From positions 7,478-71,477 of the forward strand of contig CAIQCQ010000038.1 of NCBI GenBank assembly GCA_903870365.1: DNA of 64,000 nt, given 5' to 3'. The stretch is from an uncultured bacterium. GTDB lineage: Bacteria; Patescibacteriota; Minisyncoccia; Phycocordibacterales; DATDWN01. Positions 3,269-63,267 of the stretch are shown piece by piece. Position numbers and translations under genes: made by a program. Position 1 is the stretch's first letter; each line of letters opens with the position of its first letter. A model generated the notes under the pieces. The model was not told where the DNA came from, did not search any database, and worked only from the letters and a program-made list of their open reading frames with translations.

Positions 3269-4114
3269 TTACCTCGGAAATTCGTTTACCAACTCGTTTG
3301 AATCATAAAAACTTTTTGCGAGTGATCCAAAACTCCAGACTACTGTACCGAGGGGGATAGCTGCACCGCCAGACTGTGCGCCCATATGTGGGTGAGAATT
3401 AGCAAAGCCAATATTATACAGTGTGGCCACTACATCTGGTTTCTGTGAAATATCAAAGCCAGAAGTGAGCCACTGATGCTCAACTTGGTGAATATACAAA
3501 CCAGCATAGAGATAACTGTAATAGTGATCATCTTGATTGGTCATGCGTGTAAAACGCTCTTGATTGATACTGGTAGATTGGAAATCCAATAAATGTTGGT
3601 ATTGATTACCAAGATAAAATGGTGAGGTGGTGGCTGTGATATTTTTTTCAATATTGACTGCTGTCGCCTCCTTGATACCCATGACACCCCAAGAAAACTG
3701 GGTTTCACTACCCAGGATTTTGAGGGGAGCAAAAAACTTTTCATACGATGCGCGGTCATCGTAATAAAACCGAAGTTGTTCAGCAATCAGATTTTCTACA
3801 ATTAACCGTGCCGGTACACCAGAGGTAGTTGCGGCACGGTTAATCACCACCTGATCTTTGAGGATAGCAGCCTTGAGAGTAAACCACTCGGGAGTATTAT
3901 CCCATGAGTTCTGACTAGAGCTGTCTATAACACTGGCCATCTGACCTGCCACATTGTTTCCTCCATCCAAAAAAGCCTGGCGTTGATTGTCGATCATACC
4001 AGGGGTATTGGTCCAGCCGAGTCGTATGGCAATATAACCAGCAGTCAACACAAAACCAATAAGTGCAAAGAGCAACACGATCGCAATACCAATTATTTTC
4101 AAAATTTTTTTCAT
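3269..4114 (-). CDS. Hypothetical membrane-anchored protein
   Basis: N-terminal TM helix (ILKIIGIAIVLLFALIGFVLTAGYIAI) followed by a soluble domain; no recognised motifs. Confidence 0.45.
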   Translation of the reverse strand: MKKILKIIGIAIVLLFALIGFVLTAGYIAIRLGWTNTPGMIDNQRQAFLDGGNNVAGQMASVIDSSSQNSWDNTPEWFTLKAAILKDQVVINRAATTSGVPARLIVENLIAEQLRFYYDDRASYEKFFAPLKILGSETQFSWGVMGIKEATAVNIEKNITATTSPFYLGNQYQHLLDFQSTSINQERFTRMTNQDDHYYSYLYAGLYIHQVEHQWLTSGFDISQKPDVVATLYNIGFANSHPHMGAQSGGAAIPLGTVVWSFGSLAKSFYDSNELVNEFPR

Positions 4115-4198
4115 GAAATGGTTATACTCAAAGAGTTAGAGAAAAGTATATATACCACATTCTCCGCAATCACCCCTCTTTACGTGACCACAAATATA

Positions 4199-6358
4199 TC
4201 ATTCAAAGTGAATACTGCCTGCAGTTTTTTCAAGTTCAGATTTTAAAAGAGGATATTTTTTCAATTGAAAATCCTCTGCAATAATTTGTTTAGCTTCTTC
4301 GCGAGCAGCCTCAACCATCTTGAGATTTTGCAACGCGTCCATGGCTAAATCAGAAATGCCCCATTGTTTACCGCCGTACAGTTCACCTGCACCACGTTGT
4401 GACAGGTCAAACTCTGCCAACTCAAAACCATTTTTTGCTACACTCAAAGCCTTCAATCGAGCCACTGTTTTTGCCCCAGTACTCTCGGTAAAGACGTAAC
4501 AATATGCTTGGTGGTTACTCCGAATCACTCGTCCTCGAAGTTGATGGAGTTGAGACAAACCAAATCGTTCAGCACCTTCGATAAGGATCATTGTTGCATT
4601 TGGTACATTAACCCCGACCTCCACTACTGATGTAGCCACCAAAATATCTGTCTTGTGATTCGTAAAGTCCAGCATATTTTTTTCTTTCTCTGAAGTAGTC
4701 ATCTTGCTATGGAGGATGCCCACTTTCCAACGTGGAAAAACTTCGGTCTGTAGACGTTTGGCTTCTTCGGTCACTGATTTAGCGATGACAGCCATTTCTT
4801 TGGTTGGGTCGGCTTCATTGATACGTGGACAAATAATATAGAGCTGTCGACCCTCTTGTAACCCTTTTTCAATTTCTGTATATGTTGCCACACGGTCTTT
4901 TGGTAAGACAATTTTAGTAATGATTGGCTTTCGTCCGACTGGCATTTGATCAAGAATAGAAAGATCGAGGTCACCATAGAGTGTCAGTGACAATGTGCGG
5001 GGAATAGGGGTGGCGGTCATCGATAACAAGTGTGGCATATGGACCTGATTTTTCTGTGTCAGTTTTTGTCGTTGTGCTGTTCCAAAGCGATGTTGTTCAT
5101 CAATAATAACAAAGGCTAAATGCTTGAAAATGACTGATTTGGAAATAAGCGCATGAGTACCTACCACAATAGGGATCTCACCATTTGCTACCCATTTAGA
5201 CAGTTGAGCTTTAGAAACACTGGTCCATCCATTTTTATCTGATTTAGATGGGAATTTTTTACAGCCCGACCCAGTGATCAAACCGACTGCGATACCAGTA
5301 CCACGAAAAAACTCTATAAAATTTTCAAATTGTTGTTTGGCCAAGATTTCTGTCGGGGCCATGTAGGCCACCTGGAGGTTACCAAAGTTTTGACCTGTCG
5401 GTCGTGATGTCACCACGGCAAACGTGGTGGCCGCAGCTACCGCTGTCTTGCCAGAACCAACGTCTCCTTCGAGTAAGCGTGACATGGGGTGACCCGAGCG
5501 AAAGTTAATCAGGATAGTTTCAATACTTTTTTGCTGGGCGTCGGTGGCTTTAAATGGAAAGTTTTTAATGAAACCATCAACAGATTTTTTGTCTGCAGTA
5601 ATATCAAAACTTTTTTCCGCTTTCCATTGTGATTTTTCTTGTTGTTTACGTAGCTGAATAAAAAATATTTCCTGAAAGGCAAATCGTTTGCGGGCAGCCA
5701 GGGCATCACTTTCACGTTTTGGCGCGTGAATATATATCAGAGCATCAGACATACCTGGCAAATGATATTTGTCCAAAATCTCTTGGGGGATAGGATCGAC
5801 CAATGTTTCCAACATGCCGCTTTTAAAAATACGTTCGATGTTGTGATAGATCCAATTTGATGTCAGACCACGACTTTCTGGATAGACTGGATACAACGCA
5901 TGCTCTTCACCCTGGTCTCCAAATAGATTTTTACCCACAGCTAGTGGCACCTTGCCAGCAATTTCTATTTTTGGATTAGAAAAATAAATATCTCCTTTGC
6001 GATCAGAGACTTTTCCTTCAATACGCACGGTGGCACCCTCACGGATCATTTTTGCTAAATATGGTTGATTAAACCAGACGATTTTGACTCGACCAGTTTC
6101 ATCAGTGACTGTTGCCTCGGCCATGGGAATTTTTTTCACAAAAGCTTTGCTCATCTTCAAACCAGTAATAGTGCCATACACCACGGCATCTTCGCCAACA
6201 GCAAGAGTGCCAATATTTTTTACTTCACTGGTATTACCGTAGCGCACAGGGAAGTGATACAGCAAATCTTCAACAGTTTTTATGCCAAGTTTATGTAAGG
6301 CTTTTTTCTGTGGCTCAATGGTACGAAAAGCTTGTTCAATAGGAGTGTTGGGATTCAT
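4199..6358 (-). CDS. recG: ATP-dependent DNA helicase RecG
   Basis: 719 aa; wedge domain, Walker A GDVGSGKTAVA, DEQHRFG, helicase C-terminal motifs (QLHQLRGRVIRS). Confidence 0.9.
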   Translation of the reverse strand: MNPNTPIEQAFRTIEPQKKALHKLGIKTVEDLLYHFPVRYGNTSEVKNIGTLAVGEDAVVYGTITGLKMSKAFVKKIPMAEATVTDETGRVKIVWFNQPYLAKMIREGATVRIEGKVSDRKGDIYFSNPKIEIAGKVPLAVGKNLFGDQGEEHALYPVYPESRGLTSNWIYHNIERIFKSGMLETLVDPIPQEILDKYHLPGMSDALIYIHAPKRESDALAARKRFAFQEIFFIQLRKQQEKSQWKAEKSFDITADKKSVDGFIKNFPFKATDAQQKSIETILINFRSGHPMSRLLEGDVGSGKTAVAAATTFAVVTSRPTGQNFGNLQVAYMAPTEILAKQQFENFIEFFRGTGIAVGLITGSGCKKFPSKSDKNGWTSVSKAQLSKWVANGEIPIVVGTHALISKSVIFKHLAFVIIDEQHRFGTAQRQKLTQKNQVHMPHLLSMTATPIPRTLSLTLYGDLDLSILDQMPVGRKPIITKIVLPKDRVATYTEIEKGLQEGRQLYIICPRINEADPTKEMAVIAKSVTEEAKRLQTEVFPRWKVGILHSKMTTSEKEKNMLDFTNHKTDILVATSVVEVGVNVPNATMILIEGAERFGLSQLHQLRGRVIRSNHQAYCYVFTESTGAKTVARLKALSVAKNGFELAEFDLSQRGAGELYGGKQWGISDLAMDALQNLKMVEAAREEAKQIIAEDFQLKKYPLLKSELEKTAGSIHFE

Positions 6359-6597: not shown

Positions 6598-7452
6598 TTA
6601 ATTTACACAAAATCTATTTTTTACTTTTGAAACCATCCCTTCTATTTCTAAACCATTCAAAATCTCTACAACCAAAGATTGTTCATACTTTGTCAGTTTT
6701 ACAATTTTTTTCTCAGTCTGGGGTTTTTCCAAAATCAATCGCAATATTTCTGCACGTTTCTGACGATTGGAACCTACAAACTTTGACTGTTTTGTATGGT
6801 GCTTACTTTTATGATTTGGGTTTTTGATCTTAGTACTTTTTAAATAAGCTCCATAGTCAAACAATGCCCAATACCATTCTCGTGGGCCTGTCCCGTTAGA
6901 AGTAGGCTTTTTTTGAAAGCCGTTAGTTCTAATGGGATTTTTTGGTAAAGTTTTTTTAATCAGTGGCAAAATTTCTTTATCAGAGACCTTCACTTGATCA
7001 GTAAAATAAAAATGAATAAACACCGCACGAATATTTGTTTCAATCACCACAATAGGAATGTTCCATGCAAAAGCCAAGATATCTCCAGCAGTAGCCGGAC
7101 CAATGCCGGGGAGGGAAATAAGTGCTTTCATATCACGTGGAAATTTTCCATCAAAATCAGCTACAATTTTCTCTGCACATTGTTTCAAATACATCCCTCG
7201 TCGGTTGTAGCCAAGTCCTTGCCATTCCAAGAGCACATCGCGTAAGGATGCTTGGGCCAAAGCCTGCGCGGTCGGAAATTTTTCTAAAAAACTTTTGTAT
7301 TTTACCAACACTCGTGACACTTGCGTCTGCTGCAACATCACTTCTGAGACCAAAATCTTGTACGGGTCACGTGTTTTTCGCCAAGGTAGATCATGTCGAC
7401 CAGATTCTCGGTAATAGCCCCAGATTATTTTTTTAAATTTCTTTTGATTCAC
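6598..7452 (-). CDS. HhH-GPD DNA glycosylase, MutY-like N-terminus, no Fe-S cysteine cluster
   Basis: LPWRKTRDPYKILVSEVMLQQTQVSRV...LPGIGPATAGDILAFAW matches the MutY/EndoIII fold; lysine-rich C-terminus lacks the 4Cys loop; position corresponding to catalytic Asp reads IETNI. Confidence 0.65.
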   Translation of the reverse strand: MNQKKFKKIIWGYYRESGRHDLPWRKTRDPYKILVSEVMLQQTQVSRVLVKYKSFLEKFPTAQALAQASLRDVLLEWQGLGYNRRGMYLKQCAEKIVADFDGKFPRDMKALISLPGIGPATAGDILAFAWNIPIVVIETNIRAVFIHFYFTDQVKVSDKEILPLIKKTLPKNPIRTNGFQKKPTSNGTGPREWYWALFDYGAYLKSTKIKNPNHKSKHHTKQSKFVGSNRQKRAEILRLILEKPQTEKKIVKLTKYEQSLVVEILNGLEIEGMVSKVKNRFCVN

Positions 7453-8040: not shown

Positions 8041-8259
8041 ATAAATGATAAACATGAATAATACTTTAATCTTACAAAAAAATATTTTTACAGAAAAATT
8101 AAACTGTGGATTACAAGACCTACGCATTCGTTCAATTTCAAACTATTTTTGAAGCAGGATTCGCAAACGTACTGTCGTACGGTGGAGAATCATGCGTAAA
8201 AAATAGAAAGAAATTATACGAACCTGTGGCGAATTGCATATGAGTGCGCAGGTCTTGTA

Positions 8260-8721
8260 TTAATTACTAGATGTCGCAACTGTCCAGGATTGAATAGTAA
8301 TATTTTTTACTCCTGGCATCAGAGCAAACACTGGATTTTTAATAGTTGCAGTGACGACCATATTACTCCACACATCATGTGTATGAGCACTGGCTGTCAC
8401 ATATGCATTTTTTTGGTGATTGACCGTATCCTCGGCACTGTAGACAACCGAAACAATCGTGCACTGATCATCACCAACACTGACCACATCACCACCAGAA
8501 GCAGGTGCATACGTATAATTTTGAGCAATTCTCAACAGAGCCACGTTCCCACACGACTGAGCGAGCAGAGTACTTTGCGCCTGTAACTCATGATCCATCA
8601 AACCAAAGCGCGCCACAAATTGACTGCTACTGGCTGCAATAGACAATCCAATCAAGACAAGAGAAATGACAATAGCTGAAACGAGAGCAATGAATCCTTT
8701 ATTATAATATATTCTATTCAT
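8260..8721 (-). CDS. Pilin-like protein (minor pilin candidate)
   Basis: MNRIYYNKGFIALVSAIVISLVLIGLSIAA has a prepilin-like hydrophobic N-terminus; adjacent to the pilin gene. Confidence 0.45.
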   Translation of the reverse strand: MNRIYYNKGFIALVSAIVISLVLIGLSIAASSSQFVARFGLMDHELQAQSTLLAQSCGNVALLRIAQNYTYAPASGGDVVSVGDDQCTIVSVVYSAEDTVNHQKNAYVTASAHTHDVWSNMVVTATIKNPVFALMPGVKNITIQSWTVATSSN

Positions 8722-8729
8722 ACAAATCA

Positions 8730-8762
8730 TTCCTATTCTATTCGTAATTCTTAATTCTTTCT
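8730..8762. repeat. Heptamer-type repeat, family 3 (ttctattcgtaattcttaattc)
   Basis: Shares the ACGAATTAAGAAT / ATTCTTAATTCGT motif with copies at 14317-14453, 45387-45433, 57221-57293 and 58030-58116. Confidence 0.5.
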
Positions 8763-8802
8763 ATATTATTATTTCTTCAATTCTCTATGTTAGAATAACA
8801 CC

Positions 8803-9618
8803 ATGCCTCATTCAAAAGTTATTGCTACAGGTATCATGTGCTTGGCCGTGCTCGGCAGTATCATGATCTATACTAACAGAAACTATCTTTTCAATGGAAG
8901 AAAAGCTATCATCGGTGCGCCACAAGTCACAGTCGATACCACCGCAGGAACATCCATCAGTAACGACGACTGGAAAAAACTCCTCAACATCTCTGTGGCA
9001 AGTAGTGGCCCTATAGAAATTATTGGTCAACCAGCAACAACCGATGATACAAACAATATCACCGCCCAACTGTCTAAAAACTTTTTTACTCTCTACCTCC
9101 AAGACCAGAAAAATGGCGTGGCCATTGATCAAAACGAAGCAGACAAGATTGCTCAAGAGGCGATAAGTGGGATTAGTGTTCTACCAAATACCAAAACATA
9201 CGGCACAAATGACATACGGATTACCGCTGACACGAGTACTGCCTCAAAAATACAATACGAGACGGCTATGGCCCACACACTGACAAACAGTACACTTCAA
9301 AACAAACAAAATGAAATTGCCATCCTATCTACGGCAACAAAAAGTCAAAACCAAACAGATTTAGATAAACTTGATCCAATCATTGCAGGATACCAAAAAT
9401 TAATCCACGAGACACTACTCGTAACAGTACCTGCAGATAATGTTGGAACACATTTGGTCTATCTTAATGCACTTAGTGCAATACTTTCTGATATTAACGG
9501 TCTCAAACAACTACTCAATGATCCTGTCGCGGGATATGTCGCATTTACTTTGTATCAAAAAGACGTCACCAAACTTGGATTAGTGAGTAAAACAATGAAT
9601 ACATACTTTGGTCGCTAA
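8803..9618 (+). CDS. Hypothetical membrane-anchored extracellular protein
   Basis: N-terminal TM segment then a 240-aa soluble region; no motifs recognised. Confidence 0.4.
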   Translation: MPHSKVIATGIMCLAVLGSIMIYTNRNYLFNGRKAIIGAPQVTVDTTAGTSISNDDWKKLLNISVASSGPIEIIGQPATTDDTNNITAQLSKNFFTLYLQDQKNGVAIDQNEADKIAQEAISGISVLPNTKTYGTNDIRITADTSTASKIQYETAMAHTLTNSTLQNKQNEIAILSTATKSQNQTDLDKLDPIIAGYQKLIHETLLVTVPADNVGTHLVYLNALSAILSDINGLKQLLNDPVAGYVAFTLYQKDVTKLGLVSKTMNTYFGR

Positions 9619-9697
9619 CATATACAAATAGATACACACTGTTTTCAACAGACATACGGGTAGATATTGCCTTTTTGTTATATACTTTAGTCAAAGT

Positions 9698-11482
9698 ATG
9701 TCTTTTAGAAAAAATATCTTTCATAGAAAAAATTTTTCAAAAATCTTGTCAAGTTTTTTGATTATTGTACTACTCGTGCCGACAGTTTTTTTGGCTATTC
9801 CTGCAAAACAAGCTGATGCGATTTCTGGTATTGGTGATATCACGTTCGACCCTTCAAATTTTTTCCAAAACACCATCACTGCAATAGCAACCCCAGTCAG
9901 TGCAGGTGCCAACACAACCAGTGCAGTCCAACAAACATCTTTTAATCTGAAGGTCTTTCTCCTTGATGGTATCGCCACTGCTCTCGCTCGAGGTATCGTC
10001 CAGCAGATCACTGCTCAAGCCGTCAATTGGATCAATACAGGTTTTAATGGTAACCCAGCATTTATCACCGACCCAGGACAATTTTTCGAAAATATTGGCG
10101 ACAAAACTGTGGTCAATGCCCTTGGTAGTAGTGCGGGATCAGCTGGTGGTACACTCCTCCGACAGATCTGTAGTCCATTTCAACCTCAAATCCGGTTGGC
10201 CCTGGTCACTCAGTACCTTCAGGACAGTAACAATCAGATCGGCCAGTGCTCTATTCAACAAAGTATTAAAAATTATGATGCATTTACTCAAAACTTTGAA
10301 AATGGTGGTTGGGAAGGTTGGTTTTCTGTCACCCAAAACATGCAGAACAACCCATATGGGGCATATATTGAAGCACAAAACAGCCTAACACTCAGTATTC
10401 AAAACCAAAATCAGAAATACCAGGACCAATTGACCCAGGGTAAAGGATTTTTGTCATATGAAAAATGTACCAATACCACTGCAGCAGGAAACAACAACCA
10501 AGATTTTGCTGACTGTATAAATAGCGGTGAAGACGAGGCTTACTGTACTGAAACATATCCCACAACACCAGATACCAATAGTTGTAAAACCGTCACTCCT
10601 GGCAGTGTCATCAGTGACCAACTTGGTAAAGTCCTTGGTTCAACAGTCGACGAACTCAATCTCACTAACTCTATCAATCAAGTGGTCAGTGCCCTCATGA
10701 CACAAGGGATCAAGAGTATATTTGGTGGTATACAAGACGGTCTCCGTGGCCTCAGTGAATCTGGTCAAAACAACAATGCATCACTCGTTTCCCAACTCAT
10801 GGCAGGATCATCAGCCTCAAACACACAAAATAGTTCTACATTAGCAGGTATACAGAGTAATGTACCAACTTCACTCAGTGGTTTGACCAGTGGCAGTGCA
10901 GACACTAGTGGCTTTCTCCCAAGTATTGATGAAGCAGCTATTCAAAATGAAATTAAACAACAAGCGGCCGCTCTCCAGGCTCAGGCCACAGCCAGTGCAA
11001 ATGCAACAAGTACTGGTGTGGGTACAGTCAGTTCAAACACCGGCACCTGTACATATGTCACTGCAAAAAATGCACAAACCACCAGTACCACTATGTCACC
11101 TCCAGATTGTGCAAACGTTAATGGTACTTGGACACCAAACACCAGCACAACAAACAGTACAGGTGGCACTACATCGACCAGTGCATCCGTCTGTACTAAC
11201 ACCACCAACACTACACCGATCAATATCACCGGCATCCAGGGCTACAGTGCAGATACCAAAACATATACATCTACTATATATGCCAACAGTTACATGATTG
11301 TGTACGGTACTGGCTTTAACCCAGCCTGTGACACAGTGGCTGTGGGAAACACTGCATACACACCAACATATGTCAGTAGTACCCAACTCAATGTCCTGCT
11401 CGGGACAGCCACAGGTACAGTTGGTGTCCAAGTCTCATCTGCTTCGGCCAAATCAAATGCACTGCCGGTGACGATCCAGTAA
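9698..11482 (+). CDS. Large secreted or surface protein, Ser/Thr/Asn-rich, C-terminal IPT/TIG-like domain
   Basis: N-terminal TM/signal (ILSSFLIIVLLVPTVFLAIPA); C-terminus PINITGIQGYSADTK...YGTGFNPACDTVAVGNTAY...VQV resembles an IPT/TIG fold; first gene of the T4SS-like cluster. Confidence 0.45.
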   Translation: MSFRKNIFHRKNFSKILSSFLIIVLLVPTVFLAIPAKQADAISGIGDITFDPSNFFQNTITAIATPVSAGANTTSAVQQTSFNLKVFLLDGIATALARGIVQQITAQAVNWINTGFNGNPAFITDPGQFFENIGDKTVVNALGSSAGSAGGTLLRQICSPFQPQIRLALVTQYLQDSNNQIGQCSIQQSIKNYDAFTQNFENGGWEGWFSVTQNMQNNPYGAYIEAQNSLTLSIQNQNQKYQDQLTQGKGFLSYEKCTNTTAAGNNNQDFADCINSGEDEAYCTETYPTTPDTNSCKTVTPGSVISDQLGKVLGSTVDELNLTNSINQVVSALMTQGIKSIFGGIQDGLRGLSESGQNNNASLVSQLMAGSSASNTQNSSTLAGIQSNVPTSLSGLTSGSADTSGFLPSIDEAAIQNEIKQQAAALQAQATASANATSTGVGTVSSNTGTCTYVTAKNAQTTSTTMSPPDCANVNGTWTPNTSTTNSTGGTTSTSASVCTNTTNTTPINITGIQGYSADTKTYTSTIYANSYMIVYGTGFNPACDTVAVGNTAYTPTYVSSTQLNVLLGTATGTVGVQVSSASAKSNALPVTIQ

Positions 11483-11509: not shown

Positions 11510-13732
11510 ATGAAAAAGTTTATCACTAACATCACAAAAAAGTTTTCCTCCCCGCGCTTTTTGTCTGGGGTGTTGATGGTAGGGATGATGGTTGTTGTGT
11601 GTATGCCGATAGGTGTATATGCGGATCCATTGGGAACTTGTACTCTTGCGAGTGGCAACAATATGCCCAACCTCGTAACACTAACTGATTGTAATACTTT
11701 TCGTGCAGACGATATTAAAAATGGAAAAACTGGAGGTGGTTGGGTAGCAGATACAGGAGGAGCACAAGGTAATTCAGTCACCCCAGGAAATGCACCAAAA
11801 CCGTCATCATCAATAATACAGGATGTTGCAGAAGGTGCCATAAACACAATCATAGGTAACTTACTTATAGTGGTGATGGCTCTTATATCAGGACTTCTTG
11901 GTCTTGCAGGTCTTGTTTTGGACTATGTTATAAAACTAAGTGTTACAGATCTTGCAAGTAATATTAATAGTATTGCCGGTATCAATGTAGCATGGAGACT
12001 CATTCGTGATCTATGTAACATGTCTTTTATATTTATTCTCCTCTACTACGCCATCATGATGGTATTTGGACAAAAAGATGCGCGTAAAATCATTGTGCCC
12101 ATCATTATTGCCGCACTCCTCATTAATTTTAGTCTGTTTTTTACTAAAATAATTATTGATGCATCAAATATTATTACAGTGTCTTTTTATAATTCTATTT
12201 CTCAAGCAACAGGACCATCAATAGTTCTTGGAGTAAACAACACCAACACCTTTTCCGGGGCTTTTATGAAATCACTCAATCTAAGCAGTATATACTCTTC
12301 TAGTATAAAAGTTCCAGCAGGAAACTCTGGTGTATATATTACTCAAATTATCGGTAGTGCATTATTTATGCTAATTGCTTGTTTTATTTTTCTTGCAATG
12401 GCGGTTCTTTTTATCATTCGTTACCTCACATTTATTTTACTCCTTATCATGTCACCGTTCGGATATGTTGCTTCTGCTATTCCAGGATTAAACGGTCTTT
12501 CAAAAAAATATTGGGAGACACTCACAGGTCAAGCACTTTTTGCTCCGATATTTATGATTATGATTTGGATTACACTGACTTTGGCTAGTAGTTTTACAAT
12601 GGCAACGGGAACAAGTGCAGCAAGTCTTGGTGCTGCTTTTTCCAACCCATCATCAACCACAATCGGAACAATGGTAAATTTCATTTTACTTGCAGGACTA
12701 CTCATATATTCACTTATTATTTCAAAAAGCTATGCAACTCAGGGGGGAATTGTTAGTGGAAAAATAGTCGGGGCGGGAATGGGTATGGCTGGAGGGGCGT
12801 TGTTTGGAGGCGCTTCATACCTAGGCACACGTAGTTTTGGAAAACTTGGAACAATGGCGGCTAACAATGATAGCCTGCGAGAAGCTGCGAGTAAAAAAGG
12901 TGTTGCCGGATCCATGGCAAGACTTAGCCTTAAAACTGCTCAAACTGCACAATCATCGTCCTTTGATGCTCGAAATATATCCGGTTTTGGAAAAGCAACT
13001 GATTTTATAGGGGCTGGTAGTTTTGGTAAAAAGGGTAATGCTCCAAAAGGGTATAAGGGTGTGTTGGATGACAAACAAAAAGCTTACAACGAAGCGGATA
13101 AAAAACGTGCAGAGGGGCTAAAGGTGACTGACACAGTGGCTGATGAAGCAAAGAAAAAACTTGATAAAGAAAAAACACTTAAAGAAGAAAACGCCAAAAA
13201 CTTAGACAATGAAATTGATCTTAAGAAGAAACAAAATAATGATTTAACTCAAGAAATCACAAATCTAGAAAAAGATTTGAAAAAGGCCGTTACCCCAAGA
13301 AAAAGAGCCCGAAACAAAGGAGAAATTTATAGACTACAGACAGTTTTAGAAGACAAAAGATCTACAATTTCAGAATCAAGAGAAAAATTAGCTCAAATAG
13401 AGAAAAATAAAACAAACTTGGATACCGATTTCAATGCTCGTGAAGATATTAAAAAACTTATAAAAGATTCTGGTGGAGATAAAGATAAAAAAATATCAAG
13501 TACAAGTGACGATAGAATAAATTCATATGCTAATACTGTTGGTGATCAAAAAACACGAAATTTTGTCATATTTAATCCTGAATTTAATAAAGAAAGAGCA
13601 CGAAAGATACGTAAACTTGCAAAAACAAAATCAACAAAAGAAACACTTGAAGAGCTTCTCAAAGAAAATGGTGATATAAAAAAAGATGATAAAAAAGAAG
13701 AGACACCTGTAGCAGAACCAAAAACAACATAG
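11510..13732 (+). CDS. Polytopic membrane protein, VirB6/TrbL-like candidate, with long K/E-rich coiled-coil tail
   Basis: Signal peptide, at least 6 predicted TM segments between residues 110 and 420, C-terminal 300 aa of charged heptad-like repeats; call is from genomic context with VirB4, PrgI and pilin genes. Confidence 0.45.
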   Translation: MKKFITNITKKFSSPRFLSGVLMVGMMVVVCMPIGVYADPLGTCTLASGNNMPNLVTLTDCNTFRADDIKNGKTGGGWVADTGGAQGNSVTPGNAPKPSSSIIQDVAEGAINTIIGNLLIVVMALISGLLGLAGLVLDYVIKLSVTDLASNINSIAGINVAWRLIRDLCNMSFIFILLYYAIMMVFGQKDARKIIVPIIIAALLINFSLFFTKIIIDASNIITVSFYNSISQATGPSIVLGVNNTNTFSGAFMKSLNLSSIYSSSIKVPAGNSGVYITQIIGSALFMLIACFIFLAMAVLFIIRYLTFILLLIMSPFGYVASAIPGLNGLSKKYWETLTGQALFAPIFMIMIWITLTLASSFTMATGTSAASLGAAFSNPSSTTIGTMVNFILLAGLLIYSLIISKSYATQGGIVSGKIVGAGMGMAGGALFGGASYLGTRSFGKLGTMAANNDSLREAASKKGVAGSMARLSLKTAQTAQSSSFDARNISGFGKATDFIGAGSFGKKGNAPKGYKGVLDDKQKAYNEADKKRAEGLKVTDTVADEAKKKLDKEKTLKEENAKNLDNEIDLKKKQNNDLTQEITNLEKDLKKAVTPRKRARNKGEIYRLQTVLEDKRSTISESREKLAQIEKNKTNLDTDFNAREDIKKLIKDSGGDKDKKISSTSDDRINSYANTVGDQKTRNFVIFNPEFNKERARKIRKLAKTKSTKETLEELLKENGDIKKDDKKEETPVAEPKTT

Positions 13733-15777: not shown

Positions 15778-16425
15778 ATGGCCACTAGTGCTCCACAATC
15801 AAAAGCAACACAAGACTTTGTTCCCATCCAAGAAGTACGTGATGGCATCATCACCCTCAAAGACGGGTCTCTTCGTGCAATTCTCCTCGCTTCATCACTC
15901 AACTTTTCTCTCAAATCAGAAGACGAACGCAACGCGATCCTGTTTCAATTTCAAGATTTTCTCAACTCACTCGATTTTCCTGTCCAAATAGCTATCCAGT
16001 CACGTCGATTGGATATTCGACCATATATTGCACTACTCGAAGACCGCTACAAGGAGCAGGTCAATGACCTCATGAAGATACAAACTCAAGAGTACATTGA
16101 GTTCATCAAGAATTTTACTGAAAACACCAACATTATGACCAAAAGTTTTTTTGTTGTCGTACCATACACACCAGCTATTCTCAAAGGGGAGTCACTTACT
16201 AAATTTAATTTTCTTGGTAAACAAACCCAAAGCGAAAAAGCTTCACAAAAAACAGAAAGTTTCGAAGAAAACCGTACACAAATCGAGCAACGTCTCGGGG
16301 TTGTAGAACAAGGTCTCGTCAGCTCTGGTGTTCGTGTCGTCCGTCTTGGTACCGAAGAGGTGATCGAATTATTTTACAAGATTTTCAATCCTGGTGACAC
16401 CGAAAAACCTATCAAATTGAGCTAG
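15778..16425 (+). CDS. VirB4/TraE-family ATPase, N-terminal fragment (CagE_TrbE_VirB-like domain)
   Basis: PIQEVRDGIITLKDGSLRAILLASSLNFSLKSEDERNAILFQFQDFLNSLDFPVQIAIQSRRLDI matches the N-terminus of Gram-positive-type VirB4 proteins; the ORF stops at a 10-bp hairpin and continues as 16890..18695. Confidence 0.55.
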   Translation: MATSAPQSKATQDFVPIQEVRDGIITLKDGSLRAILLASSLNFSLKSEDERNAILFQFQDFLNSLDFPVQIAIQSRRLDIRPYIALLEDRYKEQVNDLMKIQTQEYIEFIKNFTENTNIMTKSFFVVVPYTPAILKGESLTKFNFLGKQTQSEKASQKTESFEENRTQIEQRLGVVEQGLVSSGVRVVRLGTEEVIELFYKIFNPGDTEKPIKLS

Positions 16426-24412: not shown

Positions 24413-25762
24413 ATGGAAGAAACAACTATCGATACAAAACAAATTTGGGATAAGGTACTCACTGAAATTGAGTTATCTATATCAAAACCAAATTTTAATA
24501 CATGGTTTAAAGACACATATATCGCAAAATTTGATGATGGTAGTATTCTTTTATCAGTACCAAACAACTTTGTTGAAGAATGGCTTTCAAGTAAATTTCA
24601 TACACTCATTCTTAAATCACTCCGTAATATTTCAACCACTATTCACTCACTTGAATATGTTATTACAAAAGAAGATACTCGAAAAAATTCATTAAAAGAA
24701 AAAACCATTCTCATTAACAAAGAACTTCCTCTTGAGGACTACTACATCAACAGGGAAGACAACCTCAATCCACGATATACATTTGATAATTTTATTGTTG
24801 GACCGTTTAATGAACTGGCACATGCTGCTGCACAAGGTGTTATTAAAAAACCAGGACTGACATACAACCCACTCTTTATTTATGGTAATACTGGCCATGG
24901 TAAGACTCATTTACTCCAGGCAATTGGAAACCATATAAAAAATAGTGGTAAAAAAGTCTTTTATATTACTTCGGAAAAATTTAGTCAGGAGTTGGTTAAT
25001 GCCCTCCAGATGAATAAACCAAACTTTTTCAAAGAAAAGTATCGTAAATATGATGTGTTGATTATGGATGATATTCAGTTTATGTCTGGTAAAATAAAAA
25101 CTCAAGAAGAACTCTTTCATCTCTTTAATCATCTATACGACAATAATAAACAGATTATTTTTTCTTCAGATAAACACCCAAGTTATATTCAAGATCTTGA
25201 GGAACGTCTCCGAAGTCGTTTTTCTGCGGGTATGGTAGTGGATATTCCTGCACCAGAAGCAGAATCTCGAGTAGCTATCATTAAATCAAAAATAGCTCAG
25301 GGTGGCACAAAGCTTTCTGAAGAAGTTATTAATTTTCTTGCATACTCTGTCACGGGAAACATTCGTGAACTTGAGGGTATTATCAACTCTATTGTCTGTC
25401 AGACTCAGTTAAAGGATCGTGAATTAAGTTTACATGAGATAAAAAACTTCATTAAAAGTAGTGCAAAACCAAAAAAGAATGTTTCTACAAAGGAAGTGGT
25501 TAAAACAGTAGCTGACTTCTACCATATAGAGGAAAATTTAATTTATGAAAAAACTCGAAAAAAAGAGATCATTAAACCTCGTCAGATTATTATGTATATC
25601 CTCCGTGAAGAATTTGCTATATCCTACCCAGCCATAGGGGAGAGATTAGGAGGTCGTGATCACACCACCGTCATGCATTCATGTGAGAAAATCAAGAATG
25701 ATATTTTAAAAGATCAAAACTTATCTGCAGAAATCAACCAATTGCGCGCAATTCTTGTTTAG
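24413..25762 (+). CDS. dnaA: Chromosomal replication initiator DnaA
   Basis: AAA+ Walker A GNTGHGKTHLL, box VII, C-terminal DNA-binding domain (DHTTVMHSCEKI). Confidence 0.95.
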   Translation: MEETTIDTKQIWDKVLTEIELSISKPNFNTWFKDTYIAKFDDGSILLSVPNNFVEEWLSSKFHTLILKSLRNISTTIHSLEYVITKEDTRKNSLKEKTILINKELPLEDYYINREDNLNPRYTFDNFIVGPFNELAHAAAQGVIKKPGLTYNPLFIYGNTGHGKTHLLQAIGNHIKNSGKKVFYITSEKFSQELVNALQMNKPNFFKEKYRKYDVLIMDDIQFMSGKIKTQEELFHLFNHLYDNNKQIIFSSDKHPSYIQDLEERLRSRFSAGMVVDIPAPEAESRVAIIKSKIAQGGTKLSEEVINFLAYSVTGNIRELEGIINSIVCQTQLKDRELSLHEIKNFIKSSAKPKKNVSTKEVVKTVADFYHIEENLIYEKTRKKEIIKPRQIIMYILREEFAISYPAIGERLGGRDHTTVMHSCEKIKNDILKDQNLSAEINQLRAILV

Positions 25763-26022
25763 AGTACTCTATGGTTGTTTGTGGATATGTCTGGGGATAA
25801 GGTGTTGGGTAAAATGGGGATTGTATGGGTATAACCACAGGTATATAGTGGGGAGAATAATGGGATAGAAAAGAGAGGGTAAAAGAAGTTGGTCTTCTAT
25901 TAACAACAGAACAAACTACTTTCTACAAAATACCTATATATTACATACTGTAAAACTTTATCCACATATCCACAGTCCTAATAGTAATAAATCTTTTAAA
26001 AAAATAAATTAATACAAATATT
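25763..26022. promoter_or_regulatory. Candidate oriC: DnaA-box cluster plus AT-rich unwinding element
   Basis: Perfect TTATCCACA at 25958-25966 overlapping ATATCCACA at 25966-25974; TGTGGATAT at 25780-25788 and TGGGGATAA at 25792-25800 on the other strand; AT-rich 25990-26022. Confidence 0.6.
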
Positions 26023-27123
26023 ATGAAGATTGAATGTGTTAAAGAAAAATTGGTAAAAGTATTAGTTAAGGCAGAAAAGATTTCTGGTAAAAATACTACA
26101 CTCCCCATCCTTTCATGTTTTCTTTTAAAAGCTGAGAAAGACTTTTTGGTTATTTCAGCAACCAACCTTGATCTCGGTATTGAAATATCACTTCCAGTAA
26201 AAGTAATTGAGCCTGGTCAGGTAGCTATACCTGCTCAAATATTTTCTCAATTTATTTCAAATATTTATAATGATAAAAATATTACTATTGAAACAGAAGG
26301 GAATAATGTAAAAATATCAACTGACCATACACATACCACTATCAAAACATTTTCAATTGATGATTTTCCAATACTCCCAAAAGTTGGAAAAGGGAATATG
26401 TTTACTCTTGCATCTCAGGATTTTTTGAAAGGTTTAAAGAGTGTGTACTATGCGGCATCAACATCAACCATCAAACCCACCCTCTCGAGCGTCTATATCT
26501 ATCCAGATGAAGAGTTTTTAGTTTTTGCTGCCACAGACTCATTTCGGCTCGCAGAAAAGCGAATAAAGCTTAAAAAACAGACTGATTTTGGTCAAATTCT
26601 CCTTCCATTAAAGAATATTCCAGAAATTATCCGGGTCTTTGAGGATATACATGATGATATAGCGGTATCTATCGATACAAATCAAATTTCTTTTGAATAT
26701 AATGGTATTTATCTCACTTCACGAGTAATTGATGGTGTGTTTCCTGATTATAAACAAATTATTCCAAAAGAATACAAAACTGAAGCAACAGTATTAAAAT
26801 ACGATTTAGTGAGTATTCTAAAAATGTCTAATATCTTTGCTGATAAATTTAGTCAGGTCTATATGTCTGTATCAGAAAAACCAAAATTATTTGAAATAAA
26901 AACAAAAAACGCTGATGTGGGAGAAAATGTCAGTCAACTTGATGCGGTAATTAAAGGGGAGAGTTTATCTATGAGTTTTAATTATAAATATATTATTGAT
27001 TGTTTCCAATCAATTGATTCTGATTCAATTATCGTACAGTTTACTGATGCGAGTCGACCAATGGTGATACGAGGGGTGAGTGATAAGTCATATTTATACC
27101 TCGTCATGCCAATGAATAAATAG
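26023..27123 (+). CDS. dnaN: DNA polymerase III beta sliding clamp
   Basis: 366 aa, three-domain clamp pattern, directly downstream of dnaA. Confidence 0.9.
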   Translation: MKIECVKEKLVKVLVKAEKISGKNTTLPILSCFLLKAEKDFLVISATNLDLGIEISLPVKVIEPGQVAIPAQIFSQFISNIYNDKNITIETEGNNVKISTDHTHTTIKTFSIDDFPILPKVGKGNMFTLASQDFLKGLKSVYYAASTSTIKPTLSSVYIYPDEEFLVFAATDSFRLAEKRIKLKKQTDFGQILLPLKNIPEIIRVFEDIHDDIAVSIDTNQISFEYNGIYLTSRVIDGVFPDYKQIIPKEYKTEATVLKYDLVSILKMSNIFADKFSQVYMSVSEKPKLFEIKTKNADVGENVSQLDAVIKGESLSMSFNYKYIIDCFQSIDSDSIIVQFTDASRPMVIRGVSDKSYLYLVMPMNK

Positions 27124-43040: not shown

Positions 43041-43212
43041 TCGTGTGCGCCCAGCAAGGTGATCTCCCTCGAATTTTCAAAATCGTCATTTTGAAAATTC
43101 TGGGCACCAGATTGGCGACAAACTCTACTGATTTCGTATACCGCCAATCTGTTCGATCCCTAACACAAAGCTTTGCTTTGTTCTGGTGCCACAAAATTCC
43201 TTTGAAATTTTG
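43041..43212 (-). mobile_element. Miniature tRNA-3'-end-associated structured element (copy L), bounded by a direct repeat of the tRNA-Lys 3' end
   Basis: Begins right after tRNA-Lys and ends with CCTTGCTGGGCGCACA (43044-43061, versus tRNA 3' end CCTGCTGGGCGCACA); 88-nt core shared with 52521-52701; four perfectly paired hairpins. Confidence 0.55.
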
Positions 43213-43285
43213 TGCGCCCAGCAGGGATCGAACCTGCGACCTTGTCCTTAAAAGGGACCTGCTCTACCGACTGAGCTATAGGCGC
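43213..43285 (-). tRNA. tRNA-Lys, anticodon UUU
   Basis: Reverse complement GCGCCTATAGCTCAGTCGGTAGAGCAGGTCCCTTTTAAGGACAAGGTCGCAGGTTCGATCCCTGCTGGGCGCA folds as a cloverleaf. Confidence 0.85.
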
Positions 43286-52448: not shown

Positions 52449-52520
52449 TGCAGCCGTCGTTCAATGGATAGGACACTCCCCTGCGAAGGGAGAAATGCAG
52501 GTTCGATTCCTGCTGGTTGC
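52449..52520 (+). tRNA. tRNA-Arg, apparent anticodon GCG
   Basis: GCAGCCG/TGGTTGC acceptor with two G-U pairs, anticodon stem CTCCC/GGGAG, loop CTGCGAA, T-arm GCAGGTTCGATTCCTGC. Confidence 0.65.
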
Positions 52521-52701
52521 ACAAAAAAACAGAAATCGCCACGGGCGGTTTTTGTGCAACCAGAACAAACCAAAGGTTTGTGTCAGGAATCGAACAGATT
52601 AGCGGTGCACGAGCTCAGTAGAGCTTGTCGCTAATCTGGTGCCCAGGATTTTGTTAACGGTTGTATTACAAAATCTGAGGGAGATATTCCTCCTATTGCA
52701 C
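52521..52701 (+). mobile_element. Miniature tRNA-3'-end-associated structured element (copy R), bounded by a degenerate direct repeat of the tRNA-Arg 3' end
   Basis: Immediately 3' of tRNA-Arg; 15-bp hairpin CTGGTTGCACAAAAA/TTTTTGTGCAACCAG; core 88 nt about 86% identical to copy L with compensatory stem changes; ends GAGGGAGATATTCCTCCTATTGCACA versus tRNA GATTCCTGCTGGTTGCACA. Confidence 0.55.
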
Positions 52702-52710
52702 AAAACAAGC

Positions 52711-61288: not shown

Positions 61289-61375
61289 GGATGAGTGGCC
61301 GAGTGGTTTAAGGCAACAGTCTTGAAAACTGTCGTGCTCGAAAGGGTACCGTGAGTTCGAATCTCACCTCATCCG
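61289..61375 (+). tRNA. tRNA-Ser, anticodon UGA
   Basis: GGATGAG/CTCATCC acceptor, anticodon loop CTTGAAA, long variable arm, T-arm GTGAGTTCGAATCTCAC. Confidence 0.85.
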
Positions 61376-61675
61376 CATCTCAGATAAAGTAAGGTTTTTA
61401 GGTGATAAAGCGATAGGCATATAGATGTTTTTGAATTGCCATTGAGCCACATTTTGCTTTTCGATACTTGCGTTCGAAAGTAACTTTTTAAGCATAGTAC
61501 GTTTTTCTACATCATTAACAAGCAAATACTTTTCTGTGGCTCTACTAGACTCTAGAAAGACATCTTTGATCTGTTCGAGAGTAACTTGAGATACACCGCC
61601 TTTTGCCTGTATTTCAGCGATTTGGCTATTTAGTACAACTCTCTGATTCTCAATCTCGATAATTCTGGAAACACT

Positions 61676-61951
61676 ATGCAGTTTGATTCTAGGACTGTCA
61701 CTAATGGAATTATAAGTGCTTATGATAACTCAATTAAATTTCAAAACTGGGGATTTACGACCACAGGTTCACTTCCGTATGGAAATTATTTTGTAACAAA
61801 TACAATAGATCATGGAAATTCCGGAGGTATAGCGATTTCAAAATATAATGGTAATTTGTGTGTACTTGGCATACCTACATGGCTAAACGCAGGAGTTAGT
61901 AATAATCAGGGTATAGTTCAAAATATTCAAAATGTTATGTACGTAAAATAA
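61676..61951 (+). pseudogene. Trypsin-like serine protease C-terminal fragment
   Basis: 91 aa; GNSGGIA resembles the GDSGG active-site box; no N-terminal His/Asp region upstream in frame. Confidence 0.35.
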
Positions 61952-61958
61952 TCGAATA

Positions 61959-62687
61959 ATGAAAAATGATTTGGATGCGACAAAAGAAAAACTCATAGAA
62001 ATACTTAGTCAAGAAAAGGGATATTTTGGACGTGTGCGCACGTGGGGACAAAGACCAACAGAATATGAATACATAGGTTATGAGTTGACAGAAGATTTTT
62101 TACCCACTTTACAAAAAATATCTGACGAACAACGAAAGAATCTTGTGATGATAATGTATTATTTTGAGATGCACGTACATCCCCTTAGGGATTTATTGGA
62201 AACGAAACAAAAAAATCAACTTGATAAACTTTATTCTGAAATAGCGTGGTCTCATTTTATGACAGTTGTTATGTTTGGGATGTTAGAAATTGCAGTGAAA
62301 GGTGAAAGAGGTGTCTGGTTGGGTGAAAAAGGGAAGAAAATAAAGAAGTTTTTACAAGATAATTTATCAGATAAAATTAAAGAAGATATAGCTGAAAGAT
62401 ATAAGGTTGATAAAATTTTTGATTATAAAAAAGAAGTCAAGAGTTTTTCCGATGTCATTGATCATATGTGGTCTCAAATTAGGTCTGGATTTATTCATGA
62501 TGCAGGAATCGAATCAAAAGGCCTTGAGTGGAATACGTTTGAGGGAATTGGTACAAAAGAAAACCCGATAACCATTAGATCAGATGTGCCTATTCAAGAA
62601 TGGTTACAGATTACATGGCAAGCTATTTTAAATTCATATGGTTACAAAGGTTTATTAAAACTTCCGAAATACAAAAGAAATACCTAG
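61959..62687 (+). CDS. Hypothetical protein with HEPN-like Rx4H motif (islet cargo)
   Basis: 242 aa, mostly helical; WSQIRSGFIHDAG contains R-x4-H. Confidence 0.35.
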   Translation: MKNDLDATKEKLIEILSQEKGYFGRVRTWGQRPTEYEYIGYELTEDFLPTLQKISDEQRKNLVMIMYYFEMHVHPLRDLLETKQKNQLDKLYSEIAWSHFMTVVMFGMLEIAVKGERGVWLGEKGKKIKKFLQDNLSDKIKEDIAERYKVDKIFDYKKEVKSFSDVIDHMWSQIRSGFIHDAGIESKGLEWNTFEGIGTKENPITIRSDVPIQEWLQITWQAILNSYGYKGLLKLPKYKRNT

Positions 62688-63027
62688 TTACTACTATTAA
62701 GTGGAAAAAACCTATTTGATATGGTTTAATGACTGCATTACTAAAGCTATTCGGACATCGTCCCACACTCCCCGCATTTTTGAACGCAGGGAAAAACTTT
62801 GGATGAAACAAAATTGAAGATTTTGTGTGTGAGATTAGAACGACGGAGCGATTCTTGGCTTAGTAAAGCCAAGACGCGAGTCGGTGCCCAGACCAAAAAT
62901 TTCTGACGAGAAATTTTTGAGTTGCGGGAGAAAAGCGTACTCGCGGTCTCACCTCATCCGCATTGTAGTAAAAAATTGAGAAGGAACTTTCGTCTAATCT
63001 CCACCGAAACTTAGTATACTTGTATAT

Positions 63028-63267
63028 ATGAAATCGCATAAAGACTTTACATGCATGGATTGCAAAAAAGATACATGGAATGAATACTACATGCTCTATA
63101 GTCGAGTATGGAAAAAAGCAAACCCGAAAATGAAAGGCAAACTTTGTATAAGTTGTGTAGAAGCTAGACTGGGCAGAAAATTAACAAAAAAAGATTTTAC
63201 CATATTGCTTGTTAATACAGAAAAAATCACAAGAAGCGCCCGGCTAAAAGACAGACTCGCAAATTAA
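63028..63267 (+). CDS. Small Cys-rich (zinc-ribbon-like) protein
   Basis: CMDC...18 aa...CISC. Confidence 0.3.
   Translation: MKSHKDFTCMDCKKDTWNEYYMLYSRVWKKANPKMKGKLCISCVEARLGRKLTKKDFTILLVNTEKITRSARLKDRLAN

Follow-up and report, generated by a model that had tools for sequence, protein, structure and literature searches.

At the tRNA-Ser gene of an uncultured member of the Patescibacteria, the 1.6-kb islet that separates two copies of a 17-nt direct repeat is, in the reading that we favour on balance, composed of two entities: a decayed large-serine-recombinase island and, separate from it, a structured module of ~165 nt whose arms copy the 3′ third of the neighbouring tRNA gene. The locus lies in a 64-kb window (contig CAIQCQ010000038.1 of GenBank assembly GCA_903870365.1), which is the whole stretch of DNA analysed here and has 39.8% G+C and four tRNA genes. 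Of the labels used below, L001 denotes the same genome beyond the window, and L039 and L045–L048 denote relatives.

A structured module carries the distal repeat at tRNA-Ser

The tRNA-Ser(tga) gene that served as the integration target lies on the plus strand at 61289–61376 (ARAGORN; Rfam tRNA model, 61.5 bits), with its 3′ end placed at 61375 by Rfam and at 61376 by ARAGORN. The window holds exactly two copies of the 17-mer TCTCACCTCATCCGCAT, both on the plus strand, at 61362–61378 and 62947–62963. The first copy consists of the last 14 nt of the tRNA by the Rfam end (15 by ARAGORN) and the next 3 nt (2 by ARAGORN), while the second is also the 3′ arm of a module, termed S, in which it represents the sense 3′ strands of the T-stem and acceptor stem of tRNA-Ser. 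None of 100 shuffles contained such a match, so the repeat is not due to chance, and the perfect 17-bp repeats recorded at this gene in the initial annotation hold exactly. All of the motifs listed there ahead of the second repeat are likewise present, namely GGTGCCCAGA at 62883–62892, the hairpin CAAAAATTTC-TGACGA-GAAATTTTTG, GGGAGA and a closing CACC.

The resemblance of S to two other copies in the window, L and R, extends over ~165 nt (62800–62963), further than the initial annotation had seen. A covariance model built from ten copies with S left out recovers S at 62827–62940 with 51.9 bits (E ~5e-14), along with L at 108.7 bits and R at 109 bits, and has no other match in the window; the kinship that had been proposed between the right end of the islet and these two copies is thereby confirmed. 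Within S (62800–62963, plus strand; minimum free energy fold z −6.1), the 5′ strand of helix P1 lies at 62800–62806, P2 at 62808–62826, the 5′ strand of P3 at 62829–62836 and P4 at ~62841–62883, followed by GGTGCCCAGA, by P5a and P5 at 62887–62928, by GGGAGA and by the 3′ strands of P3 and P1 at 62945–62960.

Copies L and R were located through the motif GGTGCCCAGR, which is also found 3′ of tRNA-Lys (on the minus strand) and 3′ of tRNA-Arg. Module L (43044–43211, minus strand; fold z −5.2) directly follows tRNA-Lys(ttt) at 43212–43285 and ends in a 13-nt distal repeat, TGCTGGGCGCACA, at 43056–43044. Module R (52523–52702, plus strand) directly follows tRNA-Arg(gcg) at 52450–52522. A fourth copy, V, lies behind tRNA-Val just past the window end, so that this genome holds at least four copies, after tRNA-Lys, tRNA-Arg, tRNA-Val and tRNA-Ser; the tRNA-Ile gene in the window has none behind it.

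Scanning metagenomes with the core pattern uncovered copies behind tRNA-Val, tRNA-Leu, tRNA-Glu and tRNA-Ala, together with two that lack an adjacent tRNA, and a search with a peptide spuriously encoded opposite the module core added more, behind tRNA-Trp and tRNA-Leu. Contigs of Patescibacteria thus carry at least 15 distinct copies behind at least nine kinds of tRNA. The module always lies 3′ of its tRNA in the same orientation, and nine copies sit immediately behind their tRNA and are free of cargo. Copy S shares its unusual P4 (GACGGAGCG...GCGAGTC) with copies in L053 and L055.

Rfam 15 returned tRNA matches alone at the gathering threshold, and nothing credible with E-values up to 10 on S, L and the copies in L037, L040 and L041. 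Pattern scans of IMG/VR phage contigs gave no real module copy with the motifs used, a pattern scan of 185,579 species-representative genomes gave chance matches alone (for example in a Nostoc coding region), and no description of the module was found in literature searches. The family is therefore new to Rfam and to the literature searched.

Related arrangements were seen with other cores. A second module type with the same arm logic and a different core occurs in L044 (6412–6600 and 8925–9130) and L043 (1700–1850), immediately behind tRNA-Ala and once more farther downstream, behind a degenerate tRNA 3′ end, with two modules in tandem in L043; these layouts suggest stacking of successive insertions. 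In L039, a small element with an unrelated core follows the same rules behind tRNA-Arg(tct) (element 3921–4073, minus strand; tRNA 4074–4146), with a 15-nt antisense copy of the T-arm adjoining the tRNA and, at its far side, a direct repeat of 17 nt of the tRNA 3′ end.

The module has a covarying five-helix fold with arms tailored to its tRNA

Members of the family share a fold of five helices over ~150–170 nt of the tRNA-sense strand. The plan starts after the tRNA with a hairpin that resembles an intrinsic terminator and has a U-run, and such a hairpin precedes most copies. The 5′ arm that follows is the reverse complement of the module's own tRNA, covering the acceptor 3′ strand, the T-stem 3′ strand and the T-loop, and is interrupted by the variable hairpin P2 exactly at the boundary between T-stem and acceptor stem. 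In copy R, for example, the arm is a perfect reverse complement of 11 + 12 nt of the 3′ third of tRNA-Arg with P2 in between. The core consists of the long stem P4, capped by the conserved hairpin P4b with an AGCA or AGUA loop, then GGTGCCCAGR, the variable hairpin P5 with its GACG-type loop, and GAGGGAGA. The 3′ arm repeats the tRNA in sense orientation, beginning at T-loop position 57 and running through to the 3′ end, and the resulting distal direct repeats accordingly start inside the T-loop and vary in length between 10 and 20 nt. Because S follows this common plan over 62800–62963, the second 17-mer is accounted for as the module's own 3′ arm.

Covariation was measured on 16 distinct copies, and a hand-aligned set gives the same picture. 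Standard base pairs fill 94.1% of the pair cells compared with 70.9% in column shuffles, both sides have changed in 28 of the 33 pairs, and none of 500 shuffles reaches any of the observed measures; when partners are slid out of register, pairing falls to 34–51%. One short helix, CCC/GGG, is changed to CCU/AGG in two copies and to ACC/GGU in a further copy. With 19 G-U pairs against 2 A-C mismatches, the fold is assigned to the tRNA-sense strand, and one G-U pair is kept in 11 of the 16 copies. Thermodynamic folding of S and of L, each taken alone, recovers the plan with the z-scores given above.

In every copy, the 5′ arm pairs with the upstream tRNA far better than shuffled arms do (for example −37 vs −13 kcal/mol), and, having a stretch complementary to the T-loop, it prefers the tRNA over the distal arm. 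Perfect palindromes of up to 22 bp are made up of the tRNA 3′ end, the hairpin loop and the antisense arm. On a shared transcript of tRNA and module, the predicted co-fold would capture the 3′ third of the tRNA within a giant hairpin (about −30 to −37 kcal/mol), and the terminator-like hairpin between them may prevent this capture. The fold of all 257 nt in L039 resembles a tRNA whose T-loop carries a huge insertion, completed by the distal arm. No consensus promoter was found adjacent to copies L and S.

The core itself also has a likeness to a tRNA end. Its best-conserved motif, TCTGGTGCCCAGGA (window 52633–52646), is the exact reverse complement of the 3′ end of tRNA-Leu(gag) plus CCA in L048 (11476–11498), and hairpin P5 sits, relative to this motif, at the T-stem/acceptor boundary, just where P2 interrupts the tRNA-specific arm. 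Judged from these sequence matches, the core may be a second, fossil antisense-tRNA unit. Most tRNA genes in the window, L001, L039 and L045–L048 do not encode CCA; most continue with CA, and many end in ...GCACA. One relative, L048, does have an encoded CCA, in its tRNA-Leu.

The islet holds the remnant of a large serine recombinase gene

The initial annotation had found no integrase in the islet. An open reading frame (ORF) on the minus strand at 61364–61729 proves to be the remnant of a large serine recombinase, comprising its C-terminal ~100–120 codons, as indicated by phmmer, tblastn and pairwise identity. It reads toward tRNA-Ser, and its final codons overlap the tRNA 3′ end. A phmmer search with this ORF returned 107 matches, among them several proteins of ~500 aa that align at about residues 388–485 and carry Resolvase, Recombinase and Zn_ribbon_recom domains; identity to one of these, P0252, is 47% over residues 389–485 (E 9e-25), and tblastn agrees on the placement. 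The catalytic part is absent at tRNA-Ser and the C-terminal tail alone is left. Two homologues of the remnant, P0245 and P0246, terminate in residues typical of antisense-tRNA translation. Since a serine recombinase remnant is present, we take the islet for a decayed recombinase island, and taken alone it would be an ordinary one at a tRNA hot spot.

In this genome and in two relatives, the 3′ end of tRNA-His is overlapped by intact large serine recombinase genes, at 8142–9842 on the minus strand of L001 (tRNA-His at 8155–8227, plus strand), 15919–17526 in L045 (tRNA-His at 15878–15950) and 13291–14919 in L047 (tRNA-His at 13229–13301), in the same orientation to the tRNA as the remnant at tRNA-Ser. 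They are followed by small ORFs and a DUF5659-family gene, and in L045 and L047 by restriction-modification genes too, and the locus looks like a conserved island or prophage. The tRNA-His recombinase of the same genome was considered as the source of the remnant and rejected, as the two are not closely related.

The cargo described in the initial annotation, a protease fragment and a 242-aa protein with an Rx4H motif, was recovered in full. The first is a 91-aa ORF with a GNSGG motif (61676–61951, plus strand) and is probably what remains of the C-terminal part of a trypsin-like serine protease, on a weak match to the Pfam Trypsin profile (positions 137–217 of 220; E 0.035). The second is an intact gene at 61959–62687 on the plus strand. 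Its product has no sequence match in Pfam, PHROG, PADLOC or the PDB, and has 190 well-conserved homologues in Patescibacteria. The R175 and H180 residues of the Rx4H motif are invariant across 30 homologues, the core is helical, and the best structural matches are to HEPN toxins. Genes for the homologues often lie in restriction-modification or defence islands and twice lie downstream of other tRNA-Ser genes; no module stands beside any of the homologue loci looked at. In its motif, helical core, structural matches and defence-island setting the protein resembles HEPN toxins and abortive-infection proteins, and we regard it as HEPN-like and as a probable RNase or defence protein.

Between cargo and module lies a 26-nt sequence, TTCGGACATCGTCCCACACTCCCCGC (62750–62775, plus strand), which occurs once in the window and whose end, CCCACACTCCCCGCA, resembles the 3′ end of tRNA-Ser. 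Over 17–26 nt it has three nearly unchanged copies (TTCGGACAWCGTCCCACACTCCCCGC; 5636–5661, 4377–4414 and 4014–4039, minus strand) in intergenic spacers of the tRNA-Ser island of L045/L046, where they stand after three successive small-gene cassettes downstream of tRNA-Ser and no module is found. Each of these copies is preceded by a terminator-like hairpin, which recalls the layout of a cassette array. A pattern scan of IMG/VR did not find the repeat. With attL at the tRNA end, the candidates for attR are this repeat and the 17-mer at 62947–62963, and our guess is that the 26-nt repeat was the right-hand attachment arm of the recombinase island.

Modules and islet are patchily distributed among relatives

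Syntenic relatives were fetched via UppS homologues. The tRNA-Ser of L047 is 100% identical over 88 nt to that of the window and is followed at once by a DUF2878-family gene and ruvX, with neither islet nor module; the flanks past this tRNA are too diverged for base-exact alignment of the empty site. The check for an unoccupied tRNA-Ser locus that had been proposed at the outset therefore came out positive, and it supports the view of this site as insertion-prone. The tRNA-Val site is empty in L045, L047 and L048 and occupied in this genome and in L039. Behind tRNA-Leu of L048 a truncated 5′ part of the module is all that is kept, and the second copy in L051 is degenerate. Patchy occupancy, multiple copies per genome and degenerate copies argue for gain and loss rather than for a fixed host gene.

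A parallel to the tRNA-Ser islet is found in L044, where tRNA-Ala is followed by 2.2 kb of cargo, a module of the first type and a repeat, with further module variants stacked behind; no recombinase is present in this cargo. Between tRNA-Ala and the type-1 module, inverted repeats of ~170–280 bp (6600–6880 and 8310–8480) surround three genes, for an HTH regulator, a 241-aa methyltransferase-like protein and a 144-aa protein, and the segment may be invertible or composite.

The wider setting of the islet is chromosomal rather than that of a plasmid or phage, given that dnaA and dnaN lie side by side at 24413–27120 and that ruvA, ruvB, polA and nusA are also in the window, which probably spans the replication origin region. 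Directly outside the distal repeat, a 79-aa zinc-ribbon-like ORF (63028–63267) matches phrog_6053, a phage protein family of unknown function (E 4e-16); relatives carry other genes in its place. Free-standing ORFs of LAGLIDADG type occur in one conserved neighbourhood, downstream of the L19 gene, in L039 (597–1274), L045 (11988–12671) and L047 (12768–13226), adjoining tRNA-Leu(gag) in L039 and L045 and lying just upstream of tRNA-His in L047; the assignment follows faint or weak Pfam matches in L045 and L047 and reading of the sequence in L039.

A resident module displaced by an island, and the alternatives

The reading to which we give somewhat better than even standing, in its history and module mechanism together, is that the module already lay directly behind tRNA-Ser, as L, R and V lie behind their tRNAs, when a recombinase island integrated at the tRNA-Ser 3′ end between the tRNA and the module. 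The recombinase would belong to a subfamily in which the 3′ end of the gene overlaps the tRNA 3′ end on the opposite strand. Integration would have moved the module 1.4 kb away, and the island would later have decayed to its surviving parts, namely the last ~100–120 recombinase codons, the protease fragment, the intact HEPN-like gene and the 26-nt repeat. The module itself would be an insertion element, non-autonomous and specific in its orientation, whose arms fold back through P1 and P3 and, as a duplex, imitate the T-stem/acceptor segment of the tRNA gene. A recombinase supplied in trans would use this mimic as its attachment site, and the incoming module would donate a replacement tRNA 3′ end and a terminator hairpin, so that the tRNA stays intact. 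On the two-entity reading, with the order of events reconstructed in this way, the 17-nt repeat is probably the 3′ arm of the module and not the attR of the island.

That the module is probably separate from the island, and not the island's own right end, bears on the initial annotation, which took the islet for the cargo-carrying relative of the miniature elements. This relationship is probably reversed, for nine copies stand cargo-free behind their tRNAs, and both the recombinase remnant and the 26-nt repeat have counterparts elsewhere without modules; insertion of an island between tRNA-Ser and a resident module is for the same reasons the simpler account. If the module were instead the native right end of a serine-recombinase island, the 1.6 kb would be one element and L, R and V its deletion derivatives. 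In both S and L044 the module does lie at the far end of the cargo beside the distal repeat, and in S the recombinase remnant occupies the opposite end of the islet. Yet the nine cargo-free copies share an identical left junction of tRNA, terminator hairpin and antisense arm, which independent deletions would not regenerate, and S retains its own antisense 5′ arm and P2 at 1.4 kb from the tRNA; it is this shared junction and the retained arm that argue for a module resident before the island arrived. The 26-nt repeat stands between cargo and module while its three L045 copies have no module, and the L044 cargo lacks a recombinase, and we judge the single-element account unlikely.

A host function would see the module as a tRNA-like minihelix RNA, with P1 stacked on P3 in imitation of the top half formed by acceptor and T-stem, freed by tRNA-processing enzymes and with its arms kept matched by local gene conversion. 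Covariation and G-U usage typical of a functional RNA speak for it, as do a core conserved between genomes whose UppS proteins are merely ~55–68% identical, occupation of tRNA-Val in both this genome and L039, closure of P1 and P3 even in copies without an adjacent tRNA, and the conserved loops of P4b (AGCA/AGUA) and P5 (GACG). Close syntenic relatives, however, lack the module at the same tRNAs, and the copies behind tRNA-Leu of L048 and in second position in L051 are truncated or degenerate. A terminator-like hairpin with a U-run splits tRNA from module, co-transcription would let the 5′ arm unfold the tRNA into the giant hairpin of about −30 to −37 kcal/mol, no promoter is evident at L and S, and gene conversion leaves the first arrival at a new tRNA unexplained. 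We consider this rather unlikely. A route through RNA, with the antisense tRNA segments acting as primer-binding or guide sites for a reverse transcriptase or an RNA-guided recombinase encoded elsewhere, appears very unlikely to us. It would suit the combination of tRNA-specific arms with shared cores, which points to targeting encoded in nucleic acid, the exact match of TCTGGTGCCCAGGA to the complement of the CCA-ended tRNA-Leu(gag) of L048, the retention of TGG (the CCA complement) in the core even where tRNA genes encode no CCA, and the fold on the sense strand. But the surroundings of the copies showed neither a reverse transcriptase nor an RNA-guided enzyme, of IS110 type or otherwise, the 5′ arm matches the gene flank (ACA and terminator) and not a CCA-tailed mature tRNA, and both arms cover the same target segment instead of adjacent halves as in bridge RNAs. 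More broadly, we hold it possible, if still doubtful, that the module is a self-targeting mobile nucleic acid whose arms encode the tRNA target, be it as guide RNA, as folded mimic of an attachment site or as tRNA-primed template.

Several points weigh against the account of a resident module displaced by an island. None of the module copies has an intact recombinase, of whatever kind, linked to it, and Pfam finds no integrase or transposase domain in the 20 window ORFs of integrase-like size. A protein recombinase with a fixed site leaves unexplained how kin cores such as those of L and R came by different tRNA arms. We infer the module-first order solely from the distribution of the parts, and the attachment role of the 26-nt repeat is a guess. 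Pairing between the two arms is weak or absent in V, L040 and L051, which weakens the idea of a fold-back mimic, and the fold could form in RNA or in single-stranded DNA.

Comparison with known systems

The islet resembles the tRNA islands and prophages of large serine recombinases in having a recombinase gene at the tRNA junction, a restored tRNA 3′ end, defence-type cargo, an empty site in a relative and decay to a remnant. It differs from them in that the last ~100 recombinase codons alone are left, the distal 17-nt repeat is probably that of another element, and the right junction is uncertain. Integration at tRNA-Ser is also known for the phage phiRSM, which uses a small serine recombinase.

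Like cis-mobilizable elements (CIMEs) and miniatures of the kind of miniature inverted-repeat transposable elements (MITEs), the module is small, gene-free, flanked by target repeats, present in multiple copies and presumably mobilised in trans. Unlike them, it has no terminal inverted repeats of its own, carries antisense and sense copies of its target, and has a conserved, covarying five-helix fold; to our knowledge, no known miniature of this kind combines such a fold with antisense and sense target copies. Origin as a MITE or DDE-type miniature was rejected, since the ends are not inverted, element-specific copies and the repeats are 10–20 nt of tRNA of variable length, and DDE-transposon ends, suggested by 'TGTG...CACA' termini, were rejected because the termini copy the tRNA flank.

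The attachment site of integrative mobile elements exploiting Xer (IMEX) of the CTX-phi type is a folded hairpin of two inverted target-like sites. The module shares with this type the order of target copy, short spacer, inverted target copy, element and target copy, as well as a strand-asymmetric fold and a fold-back duplex that mimics the target. The likeness is one of layout and fold: the IMEX target is dif, whereas the module targets the T-arm and acceptor of tRNA, spans ~150–170 nt and has an additional core of two hairpins. A dif-like XerC arm (GGTGCGCATAA vs GGTGCCCAGAA) was judged a coincidence.

With the bridge RNAs (seekRNAs) of IS110/IS1111 elements, the module has in common a structured length of ~150–180 nt and target matches on both strands. 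It differs in having no adjacent DEDD recombinase and no Rfam or sequence similarity, and its guides share one target segment and base-pair among themselves, whereas those of bridge RNAs lie in internal loops and address adjacent half-sites. An IS110-type bridge RNA was rejected, as no DEDD recombinase appears in the gene tables around those copies that had them, nor among the 20 window ORFs searched with Pfam.

Other RNA identities were rejected as well. Self-cleaving ribozymes (hammerhead, HDV-like and twister) have no Rfam match here, and the 'CUGACGA' that recalls them is just a hairpin loop; tmRNA, SRP RNA, 6S RNA and Y RNA do not agree in size or architecture and gave no matches. Group I introns are common in Patescibacteria tRNAs (PMC13011429). 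Such introns lie in the anticodon loop, no Rfam intron match was obtained, and this identity was rejected.

Implications

The module, hitherto uncatalogued, covaries as strongly as established RNA families do; it is present in multiple copies, always on the tRNA strand, and tailored to its own tRNA by antisense and sense copies of the tRNA 3′ third. Fragments of tRNA 3′ ends beside modules should not automatically be taken for the attachment sites of a neighbouring island. As a host RNA instead of a mobile element, it would add a new class of tRNA-like RNAs to a phylum in which very few regulators are known. Were insertion directed by the arms, the module would amount to a small targeting device that can be programmed, and it would explain the accumulation of foreign DNA at tRNA loci of Patescibacteria. 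Should the self-targeting reading be true, specificity would be reprogrammed by swapping arms and not by changing a protein, which would amount to a new nucleic-acid-guided insertion system in ultra-small bacteria.

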